A stretch of 64,000 nucleotides of DNA. Source: Thermogladius sp. (GTDB taxonomy: Archaea > Thermoproteota > Thermoprotei_A > Sulfolobales > Desulfurococcaceae). This document shows positions 6,314 through 56,671 of this stretch, piece after piece. A program made the translations under genes and the position numbers. Below the pieces are notes generated by a model. That model was given only the letters and a program-made list of their open reading frames with translations. It was not told the origin of the DNA and did not search any database. Where the stretch lies: NCBI GenBank assembly GCA_022759365.1, contig JAEMPJ010000007.1, positions 9,372 to 73,371 of the forward strand, read 5' to 3'. Position 1 is the first letter of the stretch. Each line of letters opens with the position of its first letter.

Positions 6314-6902
6314 ACTCCACTATTATCTTCTTCTTAACCTCCTCGAAGTGTTGTGGGAGCTCCTCAGGGTTTAAACCTTTCGCCAAATACCTCGAGAAGT
6401 ATCTCTCTAATAGACCTTTCTCTCTAAGGATTTTAGACCACGAAGCTATATGCTCCCCTCTAATCCTATCATCGCTCGGGAACATCCCTTCACCCACAGG
6501 TATACTCAGGCCGGCGTCTATCCCGCCTTTAGCGGCTGCGAACACTATCCCTCCCTTCACAGGTTTATGAAGTCCTATATCGAGAATCGCTTCTTTAATA
6601 CCCTTCCTCAAAGCCCTATAGCCTGCTAAAAGCCCTGTTAAATATGCTGAGGGGGTGTTAGCCGTGCCGCCTTTCCAACCGTACTTCTTGACTAGCTCGT
6701 TGGAGTGTGCTGAAGCCACTATGTAGTCTCCGTTCGGCTTAGCTACTGCTACTTGAACCCAGATGTAGTTCAGGGTTTTCCTTACAATGAACCTCGGCTT
6801 CCCGGATATCACCATCCTGTATCTCTTGTAGTAGTTTGTTTTACCCTCTCTCCTCCTTCTCTTCGGAACCTTGTATCTAGGTCCTCTAGCCATATCCAAC
6901 AC
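6303..6902 (-). CDS. rpl18: 50S ribosomal protein uL18
   Basis: [18 protein letters not shown]-terminus. Position between L19e and S5. Confidence 0.9.
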
Positions 6903-7355
6903 CTACTTTTTCAAAATGCCTTGCTCAACAAGGTATGTTCGGAGGGAGTTGAAGGACTTGAAGAAACCACCCTTCGCAAGCATGTAAAGCCTCCTGTAAG
7001 TCTTCTTGTCTATAAGCTTCCTATCCCTCAAGTACCTTAGATACCTCCTCATCTTCCTAATCTTATTCATCCACGCCTCTTTTTCATCCATTCTAGCCGT
7101 CCTAACTCCCTTCCTCTTCCCACTTCCCCTCCTCCTACCCTTCTTCCTCTGGGCGTGCCTTACTTTACTACTGTACCCAGCGTTCCTGTGAACCGGGACG
7201 ACATAGATGGCTTTTTCTTCGATAAGCCTCTTAATCTCCTCTCTTGTTATAGCATCAGCGACATCATCCACCCTAGCTGGATCCACTCTAATTCTCGAGA
7301 CACCTACCCCAAGTATCTCGGAGGCTAATCTCTTCTGGAAAGTTAGGTCACTCAT
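6903..7355 (-). CDS. rpl19e: 50S ribosomal protein L19e
   Basis: QKRLASEILGVGVSRIRVDP start and a basic RKKGRRRGSGKRKG stretch. Confidence 0.9.
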   Translation of the reverse strand: MSDLTFQKRLASEILGVGVSRIRVDPARVDDVADAITREEIKRLIEEKAIYVVPVHRNAGYSSKVRHAQRKKGRRRGSGKRKGVRTARMDEKEAWMNKIRKMRRYLRYLRDRKLIDKKTYRRLYMLAKGGFFKSFNSLRTYLVEQGILKK

Positions 7356-20503: not shown

Positions 20504-22141
20504 TCAGGATGCTCGCCGTTCATCACTGTCTGCATGTATAGGGCTTCTAACCTTAAATACAACCGGGTGCGGGTCTAGGGCGTTAAGGAAGAATGCTTCC
20601 CCAACACCGAGCCTGCTGAGCTTACCAGCTAGATCCTCGGCTTCCAGGCCCAGCATCCCAGCCGCGTCCCGCGCGTACTTCTCGTTGGGGGAGCCGAATA
20701 TAATCACTAGGTGAGCGTTCTCGACCACCTCCCTGGGGAGGTCGCTCGGGTTCTGAGTGGAGAGAACCATGCCCACCCTCCTACTCCTACCCTCCTTGAA
20801 GAGCTCCGCTACCAGCCTAGATCTCGATATCCTCCAAGCCTCGTCCACGACGATAAGCCGTATGTCGCTGGTACCCCTCTGGAAAAAGGTCTTCCGAGCC
20901 AGGTATAGTAGTATTAGCCCGTAGGCTGTCTGATAGGCGTACCCGTAGTTGCCCAAGTTGGCTAACACGTTGTCACTCATAATCAATTCAGCTAGATCCT
21001 TATGTCTAGAATCCCTTCCCAGGAACTCAAGTATCGGTAGAATGTCTGCTCTTACATGGCTGATGACGTCGCCAGCGGTGATCGTAGAGTAAACGTATTC
21101 AACCGACTCCATCAAAATCTCTCTCGGCACCTGGAGAGACGAAGACAGGAGGTCTGCTAGAAGGCCTTTGGCCTCAATGCTGGAATCAAACAGCCCTCTG
21201 ACCGATAACGGGTATTCCCTGGGCTCTATTATCCTCGCGATACCTTTCTCCATGTAGGCGGCTAGATCACCCTTGAAGTCCACAGCAAGGAATAAGCCGG
21301 CTCCAACTGAGAAAAAGCCCTCGAGCAACCTAGCGAGGAGAGTTGTCTTACCCCTCCCCGTGGGACCTATCACAATCATGTGTTTTAGAAGCATGTCTAC
21401 GGGTACCACTACAGGGGTACCGTCCTCCGCTTCAACACCAAGCAGTATAGCGTCCTCGTAGTCGGCGCGCGGCTTCTTAACCGCTGGGGCGGGTAGAACC
21501 GGTGCCACAGCGTTTACCGGCCCTATGAAGCTCTTGACGTCTAAATCGTTGGATAGCCCGAGCTCGTAGGCCAGGATCCTCCCGAGCTCTCTTCCAGCCT
21601 CCCTAATCTTCAACCCGAGAGTAGACCTGAAAACGTTGGAGATTATTGATGAGTGGTATGAGAGTATCTGCTTAGCCTCCTCAGTCGTGTTCGCTTCAAC
21701 CCTGATCTTAACGATAAACGATAGCCTCAGCAACGGCTTGCCTTCTACAATCATTTTATAGAGCTCGCTGAGATTGCTCAGCCTGGCTTCCAACCTCGTC
21801 TTCAAGAAGGGTTCGCTTGCTAGCTCCATGGAGGCCTTGATATTGGCCATCTCATTTTCAAGTTTTCTAAGAAAAGACGTTAAGTCGAGTTTAAACTTAA
21901 TTATCTTAACCTCGCTACCGTGCGGGAGTTTATCGATGACCGAGGCTAGTCTTTCAACGTTATCATACAGTTTCACAGGGCTTAAACTCCTAACATCGAG
22001 ATCCATCTCCTCCCCGATCAAGTAGCGTATACCCGTAACCTTGCCTCGGTTAATATAGAATAAGTCCGGCGGCTCTACTCTAACCTCACCCGCCTGCGAG
22101 ACCCTCGCCAATAAGGCTTTAATATCCCTCAATCTTACCAT
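20504..22141 (-). CDS. VirB4/HerA-superfamily ATPase, CedB-like
   Basis: Walker A VIGPTGRGKTTLL, Walker B IRLIVVDEAWR, and AVDFKGDL after the P-loop. It is last in an operon with three membrane proteins. Confidence 0.65.
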   Translation of the reverse strand: MVRLRDIKALLARVSQAGEVRVEPPDLFYINRGKVTGIRYLIGEEMDLDVRSLSPVKLYDNVERLASVIDKLPHGSEVKIIKFKLDLTSFLRKLENEMANIKASMELASEPFLKTRLEARLSNLSELYKMIVEGKPLLRLSFIVKIRVEANTTEEAKQILSYHSSIISNVFRSTLGLKIREAGRELGRILAYELGLSNDLDVKSFIGPVNAVAPVLPAPAVKKPRADYEDAILLGVEAEDGTPVVVPVDMLLKHMIVIGPTGRGKTTLLARLLEGFFSVGAGLFLAVDFKGDLAAYMEKGIARIIEPREYPLSVRGLFDSSIEAKGLLADLLSSSLQVPREILMESVEYVYSTITAGDVISHVRADILPILEFLGRDSRHKDLAELIMSDNVLANLGNYGYAYQTAYGLILLYLARKTFFQRGTSDIRLIVVDEAWRISRSRLVAELFKEGRSRRVGMVLSTQNPSDLPREVVENAHLVIIFGSPNEKYARDAAGMLGLEAEDLAGKLSRLGVGEAFFLNALDPHPVVFKVRSPIHADSDERRAS

Positions 22142-22273: not shown

Positions 22274-23638
22274 TCATGGGCCGAACACCATGACTCTTGA
22301 AATCCTCGCTTCGACACCACCCAGTAGCTTGGCTAGCCCCAGCGTCGCTGAAACTAATATTAGAATGTACACTACCGGGAGCACGAGGAGCCTGAAAAAC
22401 GTCAGGGAGACCAGGCTAACCGCAAGAGGCATAACCGATCCTTTTTCAACAGTGGTCTCGAGGTATGAGACCTCGCTTACATCCGGCTTAGATATGTTGA
22501 GCTCTCCGACTTGGACAGTCAGGGTGTGCACGCCGGGGCTTAAATCCGCTGTAAAAGCCTTGTAGTCCACGCCAAACCACTCGAAGGAAGTCTCGTATCC
22601 TCCACTTCCACCACCGTCCACTGATATTACTAGGCTACTCCCCTCCTCGTAGACAACGTATACTTTAGTGTTGTATAAGACGTCGAACACGACTGTGAGC
22701 GTTCCATTAACTCTGCTAATGTTCTCGACAATGGCTTCATCAGTATTGTAGTATATGAAGTGGTTTACATTAATGGAGATTACGTTGGGAACCCTGTACG
22801 TCAGGTTGAGCGGTTTCGAGCCCTGGGTTATATTAGCTTCAACAGTGTACTTCGAGCCGGGCAGTAGGAAGTCCAACACCTGGGGGCCAACAGGGATCCA
22901 TTTATCTATAGAGGTGGCGTTCACAACCCCGTTTGAATCACTCAGATACGTGTACAGCAGGTTGCCTTCCAGGTCGGTGGAGTTTAAAACGAAGTAGGCC
23001 ACGGGGTTGCCCACTAGGTCGACTAGGCTTATGAGCGCTGGCTCCCCCTGGATGAGCTGTTGATCGGGCGGGGTCACCGTCGAGAACAAGGATATGAAGG
23101 AGGGCAGGAAGGGGGCCCCGATGGTGAAGACTATTGGCAACGCGATCAACACAGCGCCGGCCGGCCTCGTCAGCCTGAAGGGTACTGAGTAGAGGAGTAG
23201 GCCGACCGCGATCAGGGTCTTCGCCGTCGCGTATATGACGCTGACCGCTAGGTAGAACACCGTGACCGTCACGAGCACGTCTATGAGCAGGCTCACTAGA
23301 GGCGAGATCAAACCTGACGCGAGGAATCCAAGCCCGATCTTATTGTAGATAAAGCCTATGGTCTTCAAGACCAGGAAAAGCGTTGTCAGGGCTGCTGCCT
23401 CAGCGATATACCATGCGTTGAAAGCATCCCAGTTGGATCCCAGCAATGAGCTGAAGTAGGAGATACTGTACACTAAACCCTTGTAGCTGAACACTAGGAA
23501 AGCCGAGAAAACGCCGTCCACCATGAGCCTCGAGCCAAGCTTCTTGATAGACACCAGGGGTATGGGTAGACCCCTTAAAGCGGCGCCTAGGACGTAGGTT
23601 AGTATAGACAAATAGTAGGCCAGGTAGAGGATGTCCAT
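22274..23638 (-). CDS. Polytopic membrane protein, CedA/VirB6-like, with a large predicted extracellular domain and a C-terminal TM anchor
   Basis: About 6-7 N-terminal TM helices. A ~230-aa beta-rich segment follows, with at least 7 N-x-S/T sequons (NST, NAT, NIT, NLT, NIS, NGT, NIS). Terminal hydrophobic helices are present. The N-terminus repeats the LRGLPIP..IKK.G....DGV motif of the upstream small protein. Confidence 0.55.
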   Translation of the reverse strand: MDILYLAYYLSILTYVLGAALRGLPIPLVSIKKLGSRLMVDGVFSAFLVFSYKGLVYSISYFSSLLGSNWDAFNAWYIAEAAALTTLFLVLKTIGFIYNKIGLGFLASGLISPLVSLLIDVLVTVTVFYLAVSVIYATAKTLIAVGLLLYSVPFRLTRPAGAVLIALPIVFTIGAPFLPSFISLFSTVTPPDQQLIQGEPALISLVDLVGNPVAYFVLNSTDLEGNLLYTYLSDSNGVVNATSIDKWIPVGPQVLDFLLPGSKYTVEANITQGSKPLNLTYRVPNVISINVNHFIYYNTDEAIVENISRVNGTLTVVFDVLYNTKVYVVYEEGSSLVISVDGGGSGGYETSFEWFGVDYKAFTADLSPGVHTLTVQVGELNISKPDVSEVSYLETTVEKGSVMPLAVSLVSLTFFRLLVLPVVYILILVSATLGLAKLLGGVEARISRVMVFGP

Positions 23639-23647
23639 CTAAAACCC

Positions 23648-23947
23648 CTATGGCGTTGGGGGCGGGGGCAACGGCTGGTAGACCGCTGAGGCGATGTAGG
23701 AGACAAGGGCGAACACGCTGCTCCCCACAGCGAGCCAGAACGCTGCCCAGACGCCGTCCTCGAGAATCTTCTCACCCGTCTTCTTAATCCTAGTGGAGGG
23801 TATAGGCAGCCCCTTCAACGCCCAGCCGACAACCCAGGATAAGAAGAATAGTGCCCACGCTACTACAACGACCTGCACTGTTACGTTTTTCACGAATTCA
23901 ACAAGATCCATTTTACAACCCGTTTTAAGCGGGTAGCTAACATTCAT
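23648..23947 (-). CDS. Small two-helix membrane protein, CedA1/VirB2-pilin-like
   Basis: Hydrophobic helix, then loop LKGLPIPSTRIKKTGEKILEDG, then a second hydrophobic helix and a Pro-rich tail. First gene of the cluster. Confidence 0.5.
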   Translation of the reverse strand: MNVSYPLKTGCKMDLVEFVKNVTVQVVVVAWALFFLSWVVGWALKGLPIPSTRIKKTGEKILEDGVWAAFWLAVGSSVFALVSYIASAVYQPLPPPPTP

Positions 23948-24012: not shown

Positions 24013-26037
24013 TTGAGATCGCCTCCAGTGATGCGTTGTATGCCGAGGACATGGCCTAAAGTAGCTAAAATCTACTGGGATCCCTACGACGACCTCCCGG
24101 TTATACAGCCGAGGCAGGACGAAATAGACCTATACTACGTTCTCAGGTTAACGGAGCCGGGGGACGCTAAGATAGCTAGACCCGGTGATCTGGCTAGGCT
24201 GAGGGAGACTGTTGTCAACGAGTTCGGTAGCGACAAGGTGTACAAGGCTCTATTCGAGGACAGGGTTGTCTTATTCAACAAAGTCCCCCACTGGGACTTG
24301 ATGTGGGAGGTCGCTTCTTCGGGTAATGTCTGGGGCCAACTCTACTTCAATCCGTTCATCGACTCGTGGAGGTTCAGGCTCAGCTACCATGGGGCATACG
24401 AGGTTTTGGATAAAGGGCTCGTAGACTATGTTAAAGTAGACTCAAAACACTTCTACACGGACATGCCCGTCAACCCGCCTTCAACCAGCCAGAGAAGCAT
24501 CGTGGTTCTCGACTACAAGGGGAGGATCAGGGGTTTAGCGGAGAAGGTTGACGGCCGGTTCATTATAACAAAAATATTCTACGACCAGCGCCCTCCCGTC
24601 GAGACTAGCAGGAAGCCTAGCAGTATCCAAGATGTAGTGAAGAAGAATATCGAGGGCTTAGTAGCGCTTGAGGAGAAGTCTATCAGACACCTCCTTAAAG
24701 TTCACAGAAGGTACAACTATAAGCCTGTCGTCTCCTACTCAGGCGGGAAAGACAGCCTGGTCAGCCTACACCTGGCGGTGAAAGCGTTTGGAAGCGTAGA
24801 CGTGTTGTTCAACGACACGGGTTTAGAGCTACCTGAGACGCTCAAAAACGTCGAGGAGGTCTCGGGGAAGTATGGTCTAAACCTTGTGACGGCATCGGCT
24901 GGAAACATGTTTTGGAGCGCTGTCGAGACTTTCGGCCCTCCTGGAAAGGATTACAGGTGGTGTTGCAAAATAATAAAGCTGGTGCCTATAGCGAAGACCA
25001 GTAGAGTGAAATGGCCTAACGGAGCCTTGAACATTGTGGGGCAGAGAGCATACGAGTCTCTCGACAGGGCGAAGAGCCCTGTTTTATGGAGGAATAAATG
25101 GATCCCCCACGTCGTGTCCACGACGCCGATCCAGGAGTGGAGCCAGCTCTCGATATGGCTCTATATCTACGCGAACAACCTCCCCTACAATAAACTCTAC
25201 GACAGGGGTTTCGCTAGGCTGGGATGCTACTTGTGCCCATCCAGCTACCTAGCCGAGTTCAAAGATGTTTCAACACACTACCCGTGCCTCTGGGAGAGGT
25301 GGGTTGAAGTCCTAGAACGCTGGAGGAGGAGGTTGAACCAGCCAGAGGAGTGGGTCAAGTATGGATTGTGGAGATGGCTTACACCAGCATCTGCCAAAAA
25401 GAGGATTTCAAAGAGAATACCCGGCTATGTGATCGACTGGAGGAGGGAATACGTGTCCAGGCTACTCTCCAGCGAAGCAAGATTAGCCCCTTTAAAGGTC
25501 GAGAGAGAAGGGGGCTCCGCGAGAATACTGTTCAACGACGTCATAATCGACGACGAGTCACAACAGGTCTTCTCCGAGAACATTAGGATGCTCGCCTCCA
25601 AGGTATGGCGTGAAGGTGAAACAGTGTTCGTCGAGTCGAAGAACACCCGTATCCGCATAGCCGGGGACACGATGTTCGTCGAGCCGTTTACGAGGGATGA
25701 AAACATAGAGGATCTGGCAGACGTCCTGAAAGTGATTTATAGGATTAGATCGTGTGTTAAGTGTGCTAGCTGTATTTTATGGTGCCCGCTGAACGCTATA
25801 AAAATGACCCCTAAAGGCCCCTTGCCCAGGACGCCTTGCCTCTCCTGCAAACTATGCATTGACACATGCCCCCTAGCCGACCAGCTTGTCGAGAAGGTCG
25901 TTATCCCACTTATACTAGACAACCCGAAGGCGTTCAAACGGGCCTCGAGGAGACATAGCGACCATATCCTGGCGTTGTTCAGCAAACTGTACAAGCTGTC
26001 TAAAGGCGGTAGAGAGGCTTCTAGTGGTCTCGGCTAA
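24013..26037 (+). CDS. PP-loop ATP pyrophosphatase (PAPS reductase family) with an N-terminal PUA-like region and a C-terminal 2x[4Fe-4S] ferredoxin domain
   Basis: PP-loop VVSYSGGKDSLVSLHL, YRWCCKIIK motif, and C-terminal CVKCASCILWCP...CLSCKLCIDTCP. Confidence 0.7.
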   Translation: MRSPPVMRCMPRTWPKVAKIYWDPYDDLPVIQPRQDEIDLYYVLRLTEPGDAKIARPGDLARLRETVVNEFGSDKVYKALFEDRVVLFNKVPHWDLMWEVASSGNVWGQLYFNPFIDSWRFRLSYHGAYEVLDKGLVDYVKVDSKHFYTDMPVNPPSTSQRSIVVLDYKGRIRGLAEKVDGRFIITKIFYDQRPPVETSRKPSSIQDVVKKNIEGLVALEEKSIRHLLKVHRRYNYKPVVSYSGGKDSLVSLHLAVKAFGSVDVLFNDTGLELPETLKNVEEVSGKYGLNLVTASAGNMFWSAVETFGPPGKDYRWCCKIIKLVPIAKTSRVKWPNGALNIVGQRAYESLDRAKSPVLWRNKWIPHVVSTTPIQEWSQLSIWLYIYANNLPYNKLYDRGFARLGCYLCPSSYLAEFKDVSTHYPCLWERWVEVLERWRRRLNQPEEWVKYGLWRWLTPASAKKRISKRIPGYVIDWRREYVSRLLSSEARLAPLKVEREGGSARILFNDVIIDDESQQVFSENIRMLASKVWREGETVFVESKNTRIRIAGDTMFVEPFTRDENIEDLADVLKVIYRIRSCVKCASCILWCPLNAIKMTPKGPLPRTPCLSCKLCIDTCPLADQLVEKVVIPLILDNPKAFKRASRRHSDHILALFSKLYKLSKGGREASSGLG

Positions 26038-28810
26038 TGTACTCTTTAACCATTAGGAATCTCTTCTCGCTCTCATATATTTCTTGGATGAGATCACCGC
26101 CCCTGGCAACACTATTCAATATCCTGGCCGCCTCGTGGGCTCCAACCCCTCTAGCAGATAAAGCAAGCAAGGCATCCTTCTTGAACCTGTAGAGCAGTGT
26201 AGCCCTCTTGCTCAGTTCATCCAGCAATTTATCCTCGTCGCTGTTAAGCCTCTCACCCTTCTTCAATTTATTGACGAGGCCGAGCTCTCTTGAAATATCG
26301 CGTCCTTTAACAAGGGTTAGAGTCGCCTTACCGCACTTCGGGCAGTTAAACTCTTTCTTATCCAGGAAGTCTGCTACAGTCCCACTCTTGTAATAACCAC
26401 AGCTCAAGCATAGTAGCGTTACCTTACGCGATAGAAGCTTAGAGAGGTAAGCCTCTTGATCGAACACTATGCCTTTGAATATGGGAACCTCTATATATTC
26501 TAAGATTTCTCGGTGGAATTCGTTTATTCTCTCCGACACCCTCCCCTCAACTCTGACCACACCCTTCTCAATAAGCTCCGAGAGCTCTTGTGCTGATCTA
26601 ACGTCGTAGTCTTTAGCTAGAACCTCCTTGAACGCTTCCCTCCCGATCACGGTGTCAACGAATGCCTGGAGCAGCGCGTTGCTCACTCTCTCTACTTCGG
26701 GGGATATAGCGCCGAACCTCTGGGCCACCTGGTATATCCGCCATAGAAGGGTCTTACTCTCCCTTACAGCTCCTGCTAGGAACTCCCCGCTAACAAACTT
26801 TTTAAGGTTTTTGAAGAAACCGAGGATGTCTTTCTGCAACAACCCTAGGTCGGTGTTTCCAGCTCTGATCACAATAGCGTAAGGGGTTGAATACGCTCTT
26901 ACTTTCGCAAGCGGGTTTGTCTTCTTGATATAATATGATAATAGGTCTTTAAGCATCAAGTTTAGTTTAGAGCCGCCGAACACGTTTACAAATATGACAC
27001 CCAACGGGACAACATAGTCGACGACTATCGTCTTGTCGTTTCCAAAAAGCCGGGCCACCTCAGTCCTGAGATCTGCTTTTAAGCCATACTCCTCCCTCAA
27101 TTTCTCGACCTCGCCTCTGGCCAGCCTCCGCAACACGCTCCCAACCTCTCTGGCAACCTTGTATTCAACAGGTATATTCTCGCCTTCCCAGAAGGGTACT
27201 ACAGCCTCATCTGTCGGCGCTGCCACTTTCTCCACATACAGTTTGTTCTCGCTTTCGGCATACGATAGGATTTTCCAAACACTCCCCGCAAGAACCAAGA
27301 AGTCCCCTGGCTGGATATTTAGAACCACGTAGTCCTCATCTAAGGCTCCGACTCTTCTGCCGGTAACATCGAATACGTTGATCTCCCTTGTTGAAGGTAT
27401 CATAGAGGTCTTGTAGACATGGAGCCTCGTCTTACGGGTGGGTTTTATGATCCCGGACTCCAACTTCACTATCCTACTGTACTCCAGGTAATTCACCACA
27501 TCCATGAAGTCTTCGTATGATAAGTCTTTGTATAAAGCGTTCTGGACTATATCCGCGTAAACCTTGCTTACATTAATCCCCCGGGGGTTCACCAGGGAGT
27601 ATACTGCTAGAGCATACGATAATACGTCCAGGGGGGAGGTGTATATCTCCTCTTCTTCAAGGATGTTTCTCACAGCTCTTTTCGCTAGCACGATAGACTC
27701 CAAGTAGTGTAGGAGGTTGCTCGTCGATACAATACTACCGCGCGCCACACCACCTAGCTTATGCCCGCTTCTACCAATCCTCTGAACAAGCCTTGTCACC
27801 TGCCTCGGCGACAAGTACTGTACCACATAGTCCACCCTACCTATGTCGATACCGAGCTCTAGGCTCGATGTAGCGACCACCGCCTTTATCTCCCCGTTCT
27901 TAAACCTCTTCTCCACCTCCTCCCGGTGCTCCCTTGAGAGGCTGCCGTGGTGTACACCTATATTGACCTCGTACCCGAGCCTCTCGCTAATCGAGTTCAA
28001 GAGGTTGCTCAAGTACTCGGCCATAGTCCTGGTGTTGGTGAAGACGAGGACTCCCCCGCTCCCAGCGATTTTCTCCAATATGTACATGGCTCTCGCAACA
28101 ACCCTCTCATCCCCTATGTACTTAGCCAGCTCCTTGCATTTCCCGGTGCAAGAAGGGGTTTCCACCTCTATCTCGTAGCTCTTACTTCCAACATCTCTTA
28201 CAACCTCTGTGGGGAGCTTGTTGACCGAGGAGAGGATTTGCCTCACAGAGTTCTCGTCACTTAGAGTCGCCGTCAAGCCTATTATAACCGGTCTCACACC
28301 TATGTAGTTTAGGACGAGATAAAGCACTGTGAGTAGGAGTAGGCCCCTCTTACTCTCGATAATCTCGTGGAGCTCATCTAAGACCACGAATTTAAGGTTA
28401 GACAACTTCTTCAACAAGTCCTCGTTTAAGAGAATGTAATTGAGTGTCTCTGGTGTTGTAACAAGTACTTGGGGAGGGTTTTTCTGGATGGCCTTCCTAG
28501 CGTGGTAGGGTGTATCGCCGTGTCTCAACGCGACGCTCACGCCAAAACACTCCGCTATCCTGCTTATCCTCTCAGCTATATCCCTGTTCAACGCTCGGAG
28601 AGGAGTGATGTATACACAGGAGATAGGCTCGCTTCTCAACCTTGAAATAGAGTAGAAGACTGGCAGGATAGCTGCCTCTGTTTTGCCCACGCCGGTTGGG
28701 GCCACTATAACGACGTTGAAGCCCCTCCCAGCTATCTTCTTAAAAGCCTCTTTCTGCAGAGCTGTAAACTCTCTATAACCAAGCCTACGTAGACAGTCTG
28801 GCAAACTCAT
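26021..28810 (-). CDS. lhr: Lhr-like large superfamily-2 (DEAD/DEAH-type) helicase
   Basis: Motif I APTGVGKTEAA, motif II VLDELHEI, motif VI QRIGRSGH, and a C-terminal Zn ribbon CLSCG...CPKCG. Length 929 aa. Confidence 0.75.
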   Translation of the reverse strand: MSLPDCLRRLGYREFTALQKEAFKKIAGRGFNVVIVAPTGVGKTEAAILPVFYSISRLRSEPISCVYITPLRALNRDIAERISRIAECFGVSVALRHGDTPYHARKAIQKNPPQVLVTTPETLNYILLNEDLLKKLSNLKFVVLDELHEIIESKRGLLLLTVLYLVLNYIGVRPVIIGLTATLSDENSVRQILSSVNKLPTEVVRDVGSKSYEIEVETPSCTGKCKELAKYIGDERVVARAMYILEKIAGSGGVLVFTNTRTMAEYLSNLLNSISERLGYEVNIGVHHGSLSREHREEVEKRFKNGEIKAVVATSSLELGIDIGRVDYVVQYLSPRQVTRLVQRIGRSGHKLGGVARGSIVSTSNLLHYLESIVLAKRAVRNILEEEEIYTSPLDVLSYALAVYSLVNPRGINVSKVYADIVQNALYKDLSYEDFMDVVNYLEYSRIVKLESGIIKPTRKTRLHVYKTSMIPSTREINVFDVTGRRVGALDEDYVVLNIQPGDFLVLAGSVWKILSYAESENKLYVEKVAAPTDEAVVPFWEGENIPVEYKVAREVGSVLRRLARGEVEKLREEYGLKADLRTEVARLFGNDKTIVVDYVVPLGVIFVNVFGGSKLNLMLKDLLSYYIKKTNPLAKVRAYSTPYAIVIRAGNTDLGLLQKDILGFFKNLKKFVSGEFLAGAVRESKTLLWRIYQVAQRFGAISPEVERVSNALLQAFVDTVIGREAFKEVLAKDYDVRSAQELSELIEKGVVRVEGRVSERINEFHREILEYIEVPIFKGIVFDQEAYLSKLLSRKVTLLCLSCGYYKSGTVADFLDKKEFNCPKCGKATLTLVKGRDISRELGLVNKLKKGERLNSDEDKLLDELSKRATLLYRFKKDALLALSARGVGAHEAARILNSVARGGDLIQEIYESEKRFLMVKEYISRDH

Positions 28811-35417: not shown

Positions 35418-36188
35418 TTACTCGGCTCTAGGCGTCAGCCAGTATACTATTGAGCCCCCTCCCTCAAGCTCGAAGACTATTTTCATAGGCTTGTCATTGT
35501 CGAAGGATAACGTGATGTTCTTCGAGGCGGATGCCGCCCGGACAGCCAGCTTGAGTAAGTCGATGGTGTAGGTAGCCTTAGCCTCGTTCACCGTGGAAGA
35601 GACTGAGATCAGCGGTGACCCCTCCTCGAATACAGCCCTGTACTCCTTCTGTTGCTCTCCCGTGGAGACATAGAGCTTATTGTCCTTGAAGTGGAATGTA
35701 GCATAGTCCCCCACGGCGTTTAAGTCTCTTATGAGGAGCCTGAAGTCGCTTGCTAGGATCGTTACTGTAACCCCTAGCTCTATATTCAGGTCTGGCACCT
35801 CCTCAGGTACAGTCGACTTTAGCTCTACGAAAAACGTCCTCTCAACACCAGTCTTCTTGTTTCTAAAGACAGTCTTCAACACACCGGCATTCTTATCCAG
35901 CTCTAAAGCCAGGATATCCGTCCTGCCACCCCTCCTCAAGACCTTGTTTAAATCCGTTGTGGAAACCACGAAATAGTCCTCCGCTTCGAAATGGTACTCC
36001 TCGAAGGCCACGCTAGGGATTTTGACGATCGTCATCGCGGTCTTATCGGGGCTGAAGACTTTGACTTCAAGAGCATCCGGTTTAATGAAGAACGGGGCCT
36101 CATCGGTTATTTTAACCAGTGCCGCCGCAATGGCTTTAAACTTGCTTCCAGACGGGTATACTGCTCTAAACAAATGAGACACCTTCAC
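35418..36188 (-). CDS. pcn: DNA polymerase sliding clamp PCNA (GTG start near 36188; the track N-terminal extension to 36299 is judged spurious)
   Basis: FRAVYPSGSKFKAIAAALVKITDEAPFFIKPDALEVKVFSPDKTAM and a two-domain repeat. About 256 aa. Confidence 0.8.
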   Translation of the reverse strand: MKVSHLFRAVYPSGSKFKAIAAALVKITDEAPFFIKPDALEVKVFSPDKTAMTIVKIPSVAFEEYHFEAEDYFVVSTTDLNKVLRRGGRTDILALELDKNAGVLKTVFRNKKTGVERTFFVELKSTVPEEVPDLNIELGVTVTILASDFRLLIRDLNAVGDYATFHFKDNKLYVSTGEQQKEYRAVFEEGSPLISVSSTVNEAKATYTIDLLKLAVRAASASKNITLSFDNDKPMKIVFELEGGGSIVYWLTPRAE

Positions 36189-36270
36189 TAGATTATTAAC
36201 CCTACTTCTATTATTAAACTTACGACGGGAAAAGCTACGTAACTCAGAGCCTTGAGCAGAGTTGGGATTC

Positions 36271-36648
36271 ATGCAGGTTAAAATAAACATAGATTTCACG
36301 GGGTCGGCTCACGTGGTTTTGAAGAAGGAAGATGCTTTAAGCCTGCTGGATAAGATTTCAGAGTCTATAGGAGAATCAAGGAATCTATCGGAGTCGTTGA
36401 GGATTATAAGAAACTTCGACGAGTATTACAGGCTGAGTAGGAAAAAATTTGAGGAATACCTGTTCCCCCCGAAAGATCCAGCTGAATCGCTTAGGGGGCT
36501 CGTTGTAGTTCAGAAGATAAGGTTGATGAAAAACAAGGAGGATCTCGTCGAGCTAGTCTTCGATAGGAGAGTAGAAACCAATCTGATAGTAGAGGCTTTG
36601 AAGAAAATAGGCTTCGATGAGGTAGTCGTAGAGAAACAAAGCTTCTAG
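36271..36648 (+). CDS. Hypothetical protein (125 aa)
   Basis: ORF only; no motif recognised. Confidence 0.35.
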   Translation: MQVKINIDFTGSAHVVLKKEDALSLLDKISESIGESRNLSESLRIIRNFDEYYRLSRKKFEEYLFPPKDPAESLRGLVVVQKIRLMKNKEDLVELVFDRRVETNLIVEALKKIGFDEVVVEKQSF

Positions 36649-36965
36649 GATTCCCCGCTCTTCTTCCTGCTTCTCGACTTACTCTTCCCCTTCCTCGATT
36701 TCTTGGCTGTACCAGCCTTCTTTCCCCTACCAGGCTTTTTCTTAACCTGTTTTACAACCGGTGTACTCGGGGTGGTTTTCAACACATCTAAACTCTCCTC
36801 GCCGGCTATCACTTTCTCCCATTTACGGGTCAGATCAACTAACTGCTCCAACAGAGCTATCTTACTTGGTGTAACCTCGACTTCCTCTCCCTCCTCTTCA
36901 ACAGCTTCCTCGGCTGGAGACTCCTCTTTCTCTTCTGGTTCCTCGCCTTCTTCTTCAAGTATCAT
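36645..36965 (-). CDS. Small bipolar protein: acidic Glu-rich N-terminus, Lys/Arg/Ser-rich C-terminal tail
   Basis: MILEEEGEEPEEKEE... at the N-terminus and ...KKKPGRGKKAGTAKKSRKGKSKSRSRKKSGES at the C-terminus. The start overlaps the stop of the upstream membrane ATPase gene by 4 nt. Confidence 0.5.
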   Translation of the reverse strand: MILEEEGEEPEEKEESPAEEAVEEEGEEVEVTPSKIALLEQLVDLTRKWEKVIAGEESLDVLKTTPSTPVVKQVKKKPGRGKKAGTAKKSRKGKSKSRSRKKSGES

Positions 36966-38866
36966 GAGGCAACACCTTGGCGATTAGGTTTATATGTCTT
37001 AGAGGCAAGAAATATGTTTTCGCTTCCAAGCAGGCTAACCATGTAGTAGCCTGGTCTAAGTTTAGACAGGGTCTTCTCGATCAACCTCAGCTTCCCGGAG
37101 GGGCCGCCGGGCGATAGAAGCCTCGCGACATAGCTTATACTCCTAGGCTCCCCCAGCCCGAATACGACTCTGATCCCCGAGTTCACTATTATCGATTCAG
37201 GCAGGGTGAACGGGTTTTGAACCACTGATATAATGCTGAACCCGAACTTCCTGCTCTCCATGTACAACCTCGATAAAGTCTCTTCAAGAACCCTGCTCCT
37301 CGTTAACGAAGCCGCCTCCTCGACGACTATAACCAGGCGTCTATCAAGCCCCCGCCTGTTCATCTCACCCAAAGCCTGTTGGAGAATCAAGTCAACGTAG
37401 ATCAACCTAGCGTAATCGTCGGGGGCGCTGGATAAGTCGATTATAACGTTCCCATCGAGAAGGCTGGGCAACCCTCCCGCTTCACCTCCATGGGATAAAG
37501 TCTCCTCAAGAGTCCTCACGTAGGGGAGTAGTGAGGCGTATGCTACTTTACTCGACGATTCCTCTACACATGTTTCGACAAGGTCTCTCAAGGTGGGAGG
37601 CTGCCTGCTCCACGTGGTTCTATCCTCCTCGAGAATACCTTTCCTCCTATACGTCTCTACGATCAAATCTTCGAGGGCTCGGCGCTGGATGGGGCCCAGG
37701 TTAAAGAAGCTGGCAACGATGTCGGAGAGCCTGCGGGCCCTTTCTCTAGGTGATCTCGAGCCGAGGTGTAGGATGTTCAAGCCCAGATCCCACGGGTTTA
37801 TCAGTGTGACATTGCCTACTAGGCCAGCTAACTCGATGTACTCGCCGTGCGGGTCGAAAACCATGATGTTATAGCCTCCTCTCAACGCAAGCTCTTTCAC
37901 AAGGTTTTTCACGAAAGTGCTCTTCCCCATACCTGAAGACCCTATTACTATTACATGCGTGTTGGCCAGCTTCTCAGGGTTGACTGAGAGCTGAACACCT
38001 AGACGACCCCAATACCAGTCATCCCCTGTATCACCGAGCCCGGGGAGCTTAACGGGGTCTAGCCTTTTACCTTTACGCGCCACGCCTATTCCAAAACCCA
38101 GGTCTAAACCGCCCTCACCAAGCAAATCCACCACGTCCGAGAGGCGGTAGCCTACTTCAACGGAGAAATACCATAAAAACTCGCTCGCTAACACTGTTGC
38201 CGCCAGAAGGCCTGTGGCCGAAGCAACTGCGAAACCGATGTACCCGATTACAGCCTCGTTGAGCCCAGTGGAAGAGCCTGCCCGGCTACTGGTAACATAC
38301 ACTGAAAGAGAGCTGAAGAGAATGTTTACGGGGAGGAGCTGTAGAACATGGATGTTGAAGCCGGAGATCTTGCTGAGAAGGAAGCTCGGGGTGATAGATG
38401 CTGATAAAGCGTAGAAATATATCGCCAGGAACGCTGGGAAAAAACTTGACCCCAGGATTCTCCGTCTCCCTAAAACGGCTATTGAGCGCGGAAAATACTT
38501 CAGTACATCCCCGCGTAAAATTTTAACATATATGAAGTAGTAGCCGACTGCTAGGATAGATAGAAAATACGTGAAGCCGTCTAGTGTAAAAACCCATCCC
38601 CTGCCCCCAACGATAAATGTGCTTACAATGTAAAACCAGGCCCCATTTAGAGCGGCGATTACAAGGGAGTCGTAGGCGACAGCGCTTAAGAGGCTGAAGC
38701 CTAGAACCATGGATGCCGCTAAAACCGGGTCGAGTATTCCGCTGGCGAGCAATGAGAATTCTCCTAGTGTAGTCATGAGACGGGATCTTATGGTTGCGTA
38801 TATTGATAGAAGTAGTAGCTCAGATAAAATTAGTAGTGGCGGCCTAAGAGTCTTGAAGAGGCCCAT
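36962..38866 (-). CDS. Membrane-anchored FtsK-HerA superfamily ATPase (about 7-8 TM N-terminal domain plus DUF87/HerA-like P-loop domain)
   Basis: Hydrophobic first ~260 aa. Walker A VIGSSGMGKSTF, VFDPHGEY, Walker B RLVIVVEEAASL. Confidence 0.65.
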   Translation of the reverse strand: MGLFKTLRPPLLILSELLLLSIYATIRSRLMTTLGEFSLLASGILDPVLAASMVLGFSLLSAVAYDSLVIAALNGAWFYIVSTFIVGGRGWVFTLDGFTYFLSILAVGYYFIYVKILRGDVLKYFPRSIAVLGRRRILGSSFFPAFLAIYFYALSASITPSFLLSKISGFNIHVLQLLPVNILFSSLSVYVTSSRAGSSTGLNEAVIGYIGFAVASATGLLAATVLASEFLWYFSVEVGYRLSDVVDLLGEGGLDLGFGIGVARKGKRLDPVKLPGLGDTGDDWYWGRLGVQLSVNPEKLANTHVIVIGSSGMGKSTFVKNLVKELALRGGYNIMVFDPHGEYIELAGLVGNVTLINPWDLGLNILHLGSRSPRERARRLSDIVASFFNLGPIQRRALEDLIVETYRRKGILEEDRTTWSRQPPTLRDLVETCVEESSSKVAYASLLPYVRTLEETLSHGGEAGGLPSLLDGNVIIDLSSAPDDYARLIYVDLILQQALGEMNRRGLDRRLVIVVEEAASLTRSRVLEETLSRLYMESRKFGFSIISVVQNPFTLPESIIVNSGIRVVFGLGEPRSISYVARLLSPGGPSGKLRLIEKTLSKLRPGYYMVSLLGSENIFLASKTYKPNRQGVAS

Positions 38867-53598: not shown

Positions 53599-55257
53599 GT
53601 GGTGAATGTGACTGTAGAGCCAACAGGTATCCCTGTGTTGATACTGAAGGAAGGCACCCAGAGGACTGCTGGTAGAGATGCCCTGCGCACTAACATAATG
53701 GCTGCTAGAGCTGTCGCCGAGATGATTAAAACAACGTATGGGCCTAAGGGAATGGATAAAATGCTGGTTGACGCCCTGGGAGATGTAACTATAACAAACG
53801 ACGGCGCGACAATCCTAGATAAAGCTGAGATACAGCACCCAGCCGCCAAAATGCTTGTTCAAGTAGCTAAGAGCCAGGACAACGAGGTTGGAGATGGGAC
53901 TAAAAGAGCTGTCGTCTTCGCCGGCGAGTTGCTGAAGCAAGCCGAGGAGCTCCTGGCAAAGAACATCCATCCAACAGTTATTGTAAGCGGCTACAGGAAA
54001 GCTATGGAGGAGGCCCTGAAACTACTCGACCAGATAGCCCAGCCGATAGATATAAACAATGAGGATCTACTGAAGAAGATCGCTAAAACATCTCTAACGA
54101 GTAAGGCTGTCCACGACGCTAGAGACTACTTCGCGGAGATAGCTGTTAAAGCCGTTAAACAGATCGTCGAGAAGAGAGGGGATAAGAACTACATAGACTT
54201 AGACAACATCCAGATCATCAAGAAGTACGGAGGTGCCCTACTAGACTCGACGCTAGTCTACGGCGTAGTACTAGATAAAGAAGTCGTCCACCCAGGTATG
54301 CCCAGGAGGGTTGAGAACGCTAAGATAGCCCTACTGGACGCGGCGCTTGAGGTGGAGAAGCCGGAGATAACAGCTAAGATAAACATCACCAGCCCCGAGC
54401 TAATGAACGCTTTCCTAGAGGAGGAAGCCAAGATCCTGAAGGACATGGTGGAGAAGATCGCCGCTACTGGCGCTAATGTTGTTATAACGCAGAAGGGTAT
54501 TGACGAGGTTGCCCAGCACTTCCTGGCGAAGAAGGGTATTCTAGCCGTGAGGAGGGTGAAGAGGAGCGACCTCGAGAAGCTTGAGAGGGCGACGGGAGGT
54601 AGAATAGTGAGTAACATAGAGGATCTGAAGCCAGAAGACCTAGGTTATGCCGCTGTAGTCGAGGAGAGGAAGATTGGAGAGGACAAGATGGTGTTCGTGG
54701 AGGGATGCAAGAACCCGAGGGCTGTCAGCATTGTCATAAGAGGCGGCTTAGAGAGGCTCGTAGACGAGGCGGAGAGGAGTATAAGAGATGCCTTGTCAGC
54801 TGTGGCAGACGTCATAAGAGACGGTAAGATCGTTGCGGGCGGTGGAGCCGTCGAGGCGGAGCTTGCCAAGCACATTAGGAGGTTCGCTACGAAGGTGGGT
54901 GGAAAAGAGCAACTATCCATCGAGGCCTTCGCTAAAGCGCTAGAGGGCTTGGTTGTCACACTAGTCGAGAACGCTGGCTTAGACCCAGTCGATATTATAA
55001 TGAAGCTTAGGGCCGCCCACGAGAAGGAGGATGGTAAGTGGATTGGTGTAGACTTGAACACAGGCGACTTCGTGAACATGATGGAGAAAGGCGTGATAGA
55101 GCCTGTTAGCGTGATAGCTAACGCTATCAAAGCCGGTACCGAAGCCTCGACGATAATCCTAAGGATAGATGATGTAATAGCGGCTAGTAAGGCCAAGGAG
55201 AAAGGCGCTGAAACAGGCAAGAAGCCGGGCGAAGAGGAGAAGAAGGAGGAAGACTAA
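53599..55257 (+). CDS. ths: Thermosome (group II chaperonin) subunit
   Basis: [38 protein letters not shown] and a Lys/Glu-rich C-tail. Confidence 0.95.
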
Positions 55258-56276
55258 ACTATTCTAACCAACAACGGTTTTTTATAAAAACTTGAAAACA
55301 ATACCGCCTCTCCTTTATCCATATAGGGCAGTATCTCCCTGATCTCGCCAGTCATGTTGACAACCTTATCTAATACCTCGAGATCCACAGCCGATTTAAT
55401 CGAGTGAACTATCTTGGTCGACGTGTTAGCCATCACGTCTTCAACAAGCGCTGAAGGTGATTGCGAGACTATTACAAGGCCTACGCCAAATTTCCTAATC
55501 TCATCCAGCATTTTTACAAGTATCTCAACGTAGTTGTCCCTGCCGAGCAGGTTACGTGCTTCCTCAACCACTATTAGAAGCCTCCTCGAGTTAAAACCCC
55601 CTCTAAGGGCTTTATCGAAGATCTTTTTAAGGAAGGCCGCCACGTAGACCCTCCTTATAGCTAGGTCGCCTATCTTGGATAAGTCTATTACTAGAGGCCT
55701 GTTAGAGCCCACCTCGAGATCGGGGTCGCCACCGCTAAAGAGATCCTTATATCCTCCAATAGTCAGCCTCCTAAGTTTTCTCATAAGCGAGAGCCTGCTC
55801 TCCCTGAACCAGGCTGACTCATCGGGCATACCCTCAAGCGCCTCAACGAGGTCTGAGATGTCCAGATCCTCCTCCCCTCCGAGGGATTCAAGGCTTTTCA
55901 ACAGGACGTACTCTTGGGCTGGTGTCAAACCTAGCACTTGGCTGGCGAATTCCACTGAGTAGTACCCTTCCTCCCTGCTTAGTAGCGTTATAGGGAGTTG
56001 GAATGGATCCTTCACCTCCGGGTCGCGGAGCAAGCTACTGTACTCTCCATGCCAGTCCAGGATTAGGGGTTTGAAGAACACCGAGTAGTCTCCCTCGGTA
56101 AGCCTGTTTACTATTGTAGCCACGGTGAATGTCTTCCCAGTGCCAGTAGCACCCGTCACCAGTGTATGCTTGTTCAAGTCCTCAACTGGTATGCAGGCGT
56201 CGGCAGGCGGCGTCGAGTTAGCAACCTCCCCCACGACCACGCAGTCCCTGCTGGTATGCTCTCGGGTTTTAACCAC
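55254..56276 (-). CDS. Soluble HerA-like (DUF87) P-loop ATPase
   Basis: Walker [20 protein letters not shown], Walker [13 protein letters not shown]. Paralogous to the C-terminal half of 36962..38866. Confidence 0.65.
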
Positions 56277-56347: not shown

Positions 56348-56671
56348 TTAAAAATTTGTTATAAGCTCAAGGATGTTGTGCGAGCCGGTTTCACCGAGCT
56401 CCCTCGCCTCGCCGACAGTTATATGCCTGAAGTTTGAGGCTATGTAGTCTCTTATAAACTGCACCTCTTTTTCGTCCTCGGCGTTCTTAACGCCTACGAG
56501 CAGCATTCCCTCGGCTCTATTCCTCTCAGCTACGCTCACAGCTATGACTTTAACCCCCCTGTTCCTCTCAACCCTGCTCTTTATCAACTCGCTAAGCTTC
56601 TTCAACTCCTCGTTGACAAGCTCCTCGCTTGAACCCATGTACCTGTATATTTTCAGAATGTAATATTTCAC
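56348..56671 (-). CDS. Hypothetical 107-aa protein
   Basis: ORF only; lies between rpo8 and the HerA-like ATPase. Confidence 0.35.
   Translation of the reverse strand: MKYYILKIYRYMGSSEELVNEELKKLSELIKSRVERNRGVKVIAVSVAERNRAEGMLLVGVKNAEDEKEVQFIRDYIASNFRHITVGEARELGETGSHNILELITNF

Follow-up and report, generated by a model that had tools for sequence, protein, structure and literature searches.

The 64,000-nucleotide stretch of Thermogladius sp. DNA analyzed here (the window) carries on its minus strand a gene for a 634-amino-acid membrane ATPase, directly followed by a gene for a 106-amino-acid protein. This pair is best read as rpo13, the gene for subunit 13 of the crenarchaeal RNA polymerase, preceded in its operon by a membrane ATPase of the HerA/VirB4 clade, both lying within an old Lhr / ATPase / rpo13 / (conv125) / pcna1 cluster (conv125 stands for a conserved protein of 125 amino acids). 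We consider it likely that both assignments hold together, with the two genes sharing an operon; nothing observed shows their products acting as a joint machine. An earlier reading made from the letters of the DNA alone (the sequence-only reading) had taken the small protein for an unmatched partner of the ATPase; it is instead assigned here to a known RNA polymerase subunit. The small gene and the parts of its product are placed as follows.

36645..36965, minus strand: rpo13, RNA polymerase subunit 13, 106 amino acids (PDB profile, synteny, single copy)
36873-36965, minus strand: acidic disordered N-terminus of Rpo13
~36777-36869, minus strand: helix-turn-helix core of Rpo13
36648-36752, minus strand: Lys/Arg/Ser tail of Rpo13

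The assignment to Rpo13 comes from a profile (A4) built from the window protein with seven relatives in Desulfurococcaceae. Searched against the whole PDB, this profile gave five matches, all of them Rpo13 chains (2wb1_J at 8.9e-9, 2waq_Q, 2y0s_J, 3hkz_Y, and a 7ok0-type chain at 6e-5), with an alignment that spans the helix-turn-helix core. A single-sequence phmmer search of the 106-amino-acid protein against the same database also returned Rpo13 only (E 0.014), and the profile has one match in the window's genome, as is fitting for a single-copy gene. In Sulfolobaceae the order is ATPase, an acidic/basic open reading frame (ORF) of 97-103 amino acids, and PCNA, all co-directional, and the ORF in the syntenic position matches Rpo13 at 2.5e-20. 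The bipolar make-up that the sequence-only reading had described is borne out by net charges of -15 over the first third of the window protein and +16 over its last, a layout shared by 28 orthologous loci.

Rpo13 was described as the 13th subunit of the Sulfolobus RNA polymerase, encoded by SSO0396, and its listed orthologs in Sulfolobales and Desulfurococcales are SSO0396, ST0398, Saci_0816, Msed_0052, and Smar_1004 of Staphylothermus (Korkhin et al., 2009; PMC2675907). It is a stoichiometric subunit, docked in the groove separating Rpo5 from the clamp head of Rpo1N (PMC2675907). In S. shibatae, residues N47, T48, W51, and D52 fix it to Rpo5 and the clamp head (Wojtas et al., 2012; PMC3479171). 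Their counterparts in the window protein are L45, T46, W49, and E50, so that three of the four are kept or conservatively replaced, and W49 is invariant among the relatives in the A4 alignment together with G55. At the entry channel's downstream end, the Lys-rich C-terminus of Rpo13 binds double-stranded DNA in a non-specific manner (PMC3479171). The tail had been predicted to be of a kind that binds nucleic acid non-specifically, which is thus shown for the Sulfolobus ortholog, and the electrophoretic mobility shift assay that the same reading proposed for the small protein has in effect already been done on that ortholog, the tail of which binds DNA (PMC3479171). We conclude that the 106-amino-acid gene is very probably rpo13; docking through the helix-turn-helix, a tail resting on downstream double-stranded DNA, and a disordered acidic N-terminus have been shown for Sulfolobus and are expected here by homology.

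The gene that precedes rpo13 encodes a polytopic membrane domain joined to a motor.

36962..38866, minus strand: membrane HerA-type ATPase, 634 amino acids (ORF listing; Pfam DUF87, 2e-18; orthologs order-wide; reciprocal best hit with a Sulfolobaceae gene)
38132..38866, minus strand: N-terminal polytopic membrane domain, residues 1-245 (hydropathy; AlphaFold2 helices 8-242)
36992..37999, minus strand: P-loop motor domain, residues ~290-625 (conserved residues; Foldseek)
37919-37942, minus strand: Walker A
37316-37333, minus strand: Walker B (V-I-V-V-E-E)

The sequence-only reading had proposed about 7-8 transmembrane helices and a complete HerA-like motor for this protein, and both parts hold up. 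The motifs are found at the claimed places, with GSSGMGKST at residues 309-317, FDPHGEY at 337-343, and VIVVEEAA at 512-519, and residues 290-497 match the DUF87/HerA central domain of Pfam (PF01935) with 67.7 bits against a gathering cutoff of 23.2. The N-terminal third is hydrophobic, with five strong peaks in a crude hydropathy scan, and the AlphaFold2 model (mean pLDDT 87.4) places nine helices within residues 8-242 and a beta-hairpin between the membrane domain and the P-loop domain, which makes a membrane domain of about 7-9 helices a reasonable estimate from the model. This domain evolves fast (14-31% identity among relatives). No consistent Pfam family was found for it across 21 orthologous N-domains, it showed no similarity to the CedA of the window (hhalign probability 0.1), and the ESM Atlas gave no lead. 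The Pfam scan also identified no DNA-binding domain in the ATPase or in these 21 N-domains.

In the motor, residues G309, G312, G314, K315, D338, H340, E342, and E517 are invariant in all 52 aligned family members, as are E537, R539, K540, Q550, and N562; they include a D338-x-H340-x-E342 motif, the Walker B Glu517, and an E537-x-R539-K540 motif. At position 516, 41 members have Asp and the other 11, the window protein among them, have Glu. Because the catalytic residues are invariant across the 52 members, the ATPase must be under selection as an active enzyme, and judging from these residues its motor is catalytically intact. The nearest structures found by Foldseek are the C-terminal part of DndH (7es4), the C-domain of VirB4 (4ag5), and HerA (4d2i), a placement with which the PDB sequence search agrees.

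Orthologs of the ATPase are widespread in its order. Whole-genome searches found one in the majority of genomes belonging to the window's family (E 1e-59 to 1e-74), in many further families within the same order (E 1e-33 to 1e-55), and in all 41 Sulfolobaceae genomes searched, with named matches in Sulfolobus, Saccharolobus, Sulfurisphaera, Metallosphaera, and Acidianus. The window gene and the rpo13-adjacent gene of Sulfolobaceae are reciprocal best hits (1.6e-40, against 1.1e-8 for the next match). An exhaustive search of representatives returned 79 clusters below 1e-30, most of them of 550-650 amino acids with a C-terminal motor; judged by the named loci, the family is confined to archaea of the Desulfurococcales/Sulfolobales type, and HerA-like proteins elsewhere fall off sharply. 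Several near-complete genomes have no ortholog (G016, G020, G032, G037, G028, G039, G030, and G040). At least eight genomes that lost the ATPase have kept rpo13 beside conv125, PCNA, or Lhr, and one genome, G005, has the ATPase without an adjacent rpo13. In one family we also observed a divergent ATPase of 471 amino acids (L135, G033:C1, 5947-7362; E 3.6e-12 to the motor profile) beside conv125 and PCNA, and no rpo13 could be detected in between; this arrangement may be a degenerate or remodeled version of the module.

The window also holds genes related to the Ced DNA-exchange system, the first three of which form the Ced-like cluster that the sequence-only reading had mentioned and that is confirmed here, 13-16 kb from the ATPase-rpo13 pair.

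20504-22141: CedB-like gene (NCBIfam)
22274-23638: CedA (NCBIfam)
23648-23947: CedA1 (NCBIfam)
55254-56276, minus strand: CedD-like ATPase, 340 amino acids (NCBIfam CedD, 225 bits, profile positions 199-525 only)

For the ATPase itself, NCBIfam ranks the CedD model first, then CedB, then the HerA and VirB4 models, all far below threshold. It is not CedD (NF053655; 56.2 bits against a cutoff of 600), for which 55254-56276 with its 225 bits is a better candidate, and its Sulfolobaceae ortholog likewise scores at most 52 bits with the CedD model. Nor is it CedB (NF041017; 48.8 bits against 700), since the CedB-like paralog beside CedA/CedA1 is another gene. Identity with the double-strand break repair helicase HerA was rejected as well (NF040937/NF040819; 38 bits against cutoffs of 800-970), the window protein having a membrane domain and a beta-hairpin and no HAS-barrel, and so was identity with FtsK/SpoIIIE (PF01580), which matched the P-loop region only (20.4 bits against a cutoff of 24) and was accompanied by no match to a gamma (KOPS-reading) domain. 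The sequence-only reading was thus right to keep this protein apart from the nearby Ced ATPases. With CedB-like and CedD-like genes present elsewhere in the window, the ATPase is a third paralog, and we hold with high confidence that the large gene encodes a vertically inherited, single-copy membrane ATPase whose fast-evolving polytopic domain is joined via a beta-hairpin to an intact motor of the HerA/VirB4 clade. As a side observation, the CedD-like ATPase lacks the N-terminal ~200 residues of the Sulfolobus protein and a 107-amino-acid ORF lies just upstream (56348-56671); the gene may represent a CedD that is split or truncated at the N-terminus.

The two genes of the pair overlap, as the sequence-only reading had noted: the TGA stop of the ATPase gene and the ATG of the small gene read ATGA (gcc tcA TGA tac on the minus strand). 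This overlap is specific to the lineage of the window, and in orthologous loci the spacing between ATPase and rpo13 ranges from -11 to +68 nucleotides. Between Thermogladius species the small protein is 66% and the ATPase ~50% identical, and both ORFs are conserved in dozens of genomes, so neither is a chance frame. A putative translation signal lies within the 3' end of the ATPase gene.

36973..36976, minus strand: Shine-Dalgarno-like GGTG, 8-11 nucleotides upstream of the rpo13 ATG

Most of the 30 loci examined, among them loci that lack the ATPase, have GGTG or GGTGA 5-12 nucleotides upstream of where rpo13 starts. The conservation of this motif before rpo13 suggests co-transcription with the ATPase, and its recurrence is consistent with a leadered or polycistronic messenger RNA from which rpo13 is translated. 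Only Thermogladius genomes also have a TATA-like ATATAAA at -30 (36989-36995, minus strand), within the ATPase ORF's 3' end and with its center ~27 nucleotides before the rpo13 ATG; it could be a lineage-specific internal promoter of rpo13. An independent leaderless rpo13 promoter is not favored as the general arrangement, because ATATAAA is confined to Thermogladius and it is the Shine-Dalgarno-like GGTG that is conserved instead.

The cluster around the pair extends to three further genes.

26021..28810, minus strand: Lhr-type helicase, aLhr1-like (Pfam DEAD, Helicase_C, WH_Lhr, DEAD_assoc)
35418..36188, minus strand, start approximate: PCNA paralog, pcna1-type (Pfam PCNA_N and PCNA_C; relatives of 250-256 amino acids; position of pcna1 M164_1753)
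36271..36648, plus strand: conv125, conserved 125-amino-acid protein, convergent with rpo13 (3' ends overlapping by 4 nucleotides) and divergent from PCNA

Of the 29 orthologous loci examined, 28 have an Rpo13-like ORF after the ATPase gene, so that the small ORF proves to be conserved beside orthologous ATPases across the order; the lack of such conservation, which the sequence-only reading had named as a ground for its own refutation, is not seen. The small ORF is followed by conv125 and then PCNA outside Sulfolobaceae, which gives the order of the window (ATPase, rpo13, conv125, PCNA), and directly by PCNA within Sulfolobaceae. The block stays intact through local inversions (L017, L037) while the upstream flank changes between genera; in the window, genes for an IF-2B-family protein, EndA, HisRS, and RtcB lie upstream of the ATPase. 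Lhr adjoins the ATPase, or rpo13 where the ATPase was lost, as a divergent neighbor in 33 of 45 loci scanned. In Thermogladius this link is broken, a rearrangement having put Lhr ~8 kb away, beyond PCNA and the POR operon.

The protein conv125 is single-copy; 136 of 201 genomes in the class encode it, and none of 38 Sulfolobaceae does. In nearly all loci it lies between rpo13 and PCNA. Its AlphaFold2 model is of high quality (pLDDT 95). Pfam gave only a sub-threshold DUF7198, NCBIfam and an Atlas feature search gave nothing, Foldseek found nothing below 1e-3 in the PDB, and VIA-align reached at best a Z of 5.2, to alpha/beta folds of the eIF1/SUI1 and ACT kind, which lies in the range of noise. 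The best shape match in the Atlas is an unnamed bacterial cluster (TM 0.63). We regard conv125 as a candidate replication or transcription accessory protein. Two observations concern PCNA. The listed ORF (35418-36299, minus strand, 293 amino acids) begins ~40 codons upstream of the start of its relatives and overlaps the start region of conv125; translation probably begins inside this ORF, at a GTG or ATG near 36188. In a 92%-identical relative (L003; JGI 3300017482), a Cas12f1-like/TnpB gene of 252 amino acids (6373-7131) lies between PCNA and the POR operon, a place where the window has none.

Published genetics of a relative bears on this cluster. Transposon sequencing in S. islandicus M.16.4 classed pcna1 (M164_1753) as essential, and rpo13 (M164_1754, arCOG05938), the gene annotated as HerA helicase or AAA ATPase (M164_1755, arCOG00285), and the Lhr-like helicase (M164_1756) as non-essential (PMC6249222). 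This order of pcna1, rpo13, ATPase, and Lhr is the same in the Sulfolobaceae loci L126-L131, and the S. islandicus M.16.4 protein ACR42359 is within our set of ATPase orthologs. In the literature searched, no paper naming Saci_0815, SSO0395, ST0397, Msed_0053, or Smar_1003 was found, and the CedD papers do not treat this paralog.

What the ATPase does can be approached through its relatives and its neighbors. By analogy, it would assemble at the membrane's cytoplasmic face as a ring, probably hexameric, and spend ATP to thread a polymer through its pore; DNA would be the most likely substrate because of these relatives and neighbors. We give this mechanism about an even chance. The placement in the cluster, the non-essentiality, and the loss in several lineages together argue for a conditional role rather than one in core transcription or essential chromosome segregation, and we tentatively propose, at somewhat less than even confidence, conditional handling of DNA at the membrane, in repair or in intercellular DNA exchange. 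We find it rather unlikely that the protein is, more specifically, a DNA translocase of Sulfolobales and Desulfurococcales that works with its neighbor aLhr1 and moves chromosomal DNA across or along the membrane. In such a partnership it could be one possible donor-side (export) motor of the ultraviolet (UV)-induced DNA exchange, and the operon that ties it to rpo13 and pcna1 would be a sign of coordination with the transcription and replication that occur on DNA once transferred.

Several observations weigh against parts of this reading of the pair. The specificity residue N47 of Rpo13 is Leu in the window protein, and a BLASTP comparison of that protein with Sulfolobaceae Rpo13 is weak (E 0.022 over 17 residues); with direct pairwise similarity so low, the assignment rests on profile, synteny, and the published Staphylothermus ortholog. 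M164_1755 has been equated with the ATPase ortholog by gene order and annotation only, not by sequence. The conserved adjacency and the overlapping stop and start are, moreover, compatible with a functional link of Rpo13 or RNA polymerase to the ATPase. The model built on the sequence-only reading joins the two proteins in a dedicated translocation device, in which the polycation tail would bring nucleic acid, or some other polyanion, to the pump in the membrane. Adjacency throughout the order, with the overlap here and short spacers elsewhere, and the binding of double-stranded DNA by the ortholog's tail agree with this idea, but several crystal and cryo-electron microscopy structures show the small protein as a stoichiometric subunit of RNA polymerase, its gene persists in the ATPase-less genomes mentioned above, and the ATPase of G005 does without an adjacent rpo13. 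We found no positive evidence for the pairing itself beyond operon adjacency and regard the device as very improbable. A complex prediction for the ATPase motor (A5) and the small protein (A4) (score 0.00, controls not run) gave no verdict and was counted neither way.

Other explanations concern the ATPase by itself. It might be an additional motor of Ced/Ups DNA exchange, perhaps on the donor (export) side and working with CedA-type channels. It is a paralog of CedB and CedD, it is non-essential, as are the ced genes, and according to published work the export components are incompletely known. The Ced operon lies 3-15 kb from the ATPase-rpo13-PCNA block in at least 14 genomes (G007, G008, G019, G022, G025, G027, and G031 among them), a proximity that may go back to old macro-synteny or hint weakly at a functional tie, and in Sulfolobaceae the ATPase gene is not near the ced genes. 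Co-occurrence is loose: ATPase and CedA are jointly absent from the near-complete genomes G016, G020, and G034, but CedA is found without the ATPase in six genomes (G032, G037, G028, G039, G030, and G040) and the ATPase without a CedA match in G005 and G024. As the ATPase gene is also absent from the tabulated TFB3-dependent UV-induced genes of S. acidocaldarius and its N-terminal domain has no similarity to CedA, we judge this role possible though unlikely. An analog of FtsK/SpoIIIE, anchored in the membrane and clearing or segregating chromosomal DNA at the ESCRT-type division site, would accord with an FtsK-HerA superfamily motor on a polytopic anchor, with replication genes as neighbors, and with the presence of the ATPase in every Sulfolobaceae genome searched. 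It is hard to reconcile, however, with the non-essentiality of the syntenic gene in S. islandicus, with the loss of the ATPase in several lineages of the same order, and with an FtsK_SpoIIIE match that stays below cutoff (20.4 against 24) with no gamma domain detected, and appears quite doubtful to us. Finally, the linkage could be historical only, the ATPase moving or assembling a non-DNA substrate (a protein or pilin, in the manner of VirB4) unrelated to Rpo13, Lhr, or PCNA. VirB4-like enzymes do energize pilus or protein transactions, one of the best matches by structure is the VirB4 C-domain, and the Pfam scan identified no DNA-binding domain in the ATPase; yet the block holds through the inversions of L017 and L037 while its upstream flank varies, and no pilin or secretion genes are consistently adjacent, so that we consider this explanation improbable.

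Half of this finding was already known, in the form of Rpo13 with its published DNA-binding tail and its position in RNA polymerase. What remains is a membrane motor ATPase that is present in every Sulfolobaceae genome searched, all genetic model strains included, and that is catalogued only as "ATP-binding protein / HerA helicase (arCOG00285)." Being non-essential, it can be deleted, and the gene cluster that it shares with a repair helicase, a subunit of RNA polymerase, and a sliding clamp is among the most stable in these archaea. To our knowledge, Crenarchaea are without FtsK, and we know of no motor for the DNA-export side of the crenarchaeal Ced/Ups exchange system. A third membrane HerA paralog is an obvious candidate for an FtsK-like or a DNA-export role, and if neither is true, the conserved linkage still calls for an explanation.

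Among known systems, the ATPase is closest to CedD (Saci_0667/SiRe_1715) and CedB (Saci_0748), the HerA-clade ATPases of Ced DNA import and its best NCBIfam matches, with which it shares a P-loop motor of the HerA/VirB4 clade, association with the membrane, and a crenarchaeal host. It differs from them in its N-terminal membrane domain of 7-9 helices, CedB and CedD being reported to have a VirB4-like N-domain and at most a short membrane anchor, and in not being adjacent to cedA/cedA1. With HerA, both the resection helicase associated with Mre11-Rad50-NurA at double-strand breaks (PDB 4D2I) and the anti-phage HerA, it has in common DUF87, the catalytic motifs, and the fold of a ring translocase; unlike these, it has no HAS-barrel N-domain, is embedded in the membrane, and is not encoded beside nurA, mre11, or rad50. 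FtsK/SpoIIIE and coupling proteins of the VirD4/TrwB type resemble it in combining an N-terminal membrane anchor with a C-terminal pumping ATPase of the FtsK-HerA superfamily, but they belong to another clade of that superfamily: TrwB_AAD_bind matches the ATPase around the P-loop only, and the ATPase has neither a gamma nor an all-alpha domain. The small protein, for its part, is to be compared with Rpo13 of S. shibatae (PDB 2WAQ/2WB1/4AYB). Outside the core it is ~20-30% identical to the Sulfolobus proteins, and it has Leu at the equivalent of N47; in common with them it has nearly the same length (106 and 104 amino acids), an acidic disordered N-terminus, a helix-turn-helix core with the T/W/acid docking residues, a Lys-rich tail, and a single-copy gene that adjoins pcna1 downstream of the arCOG00285 ATPase.

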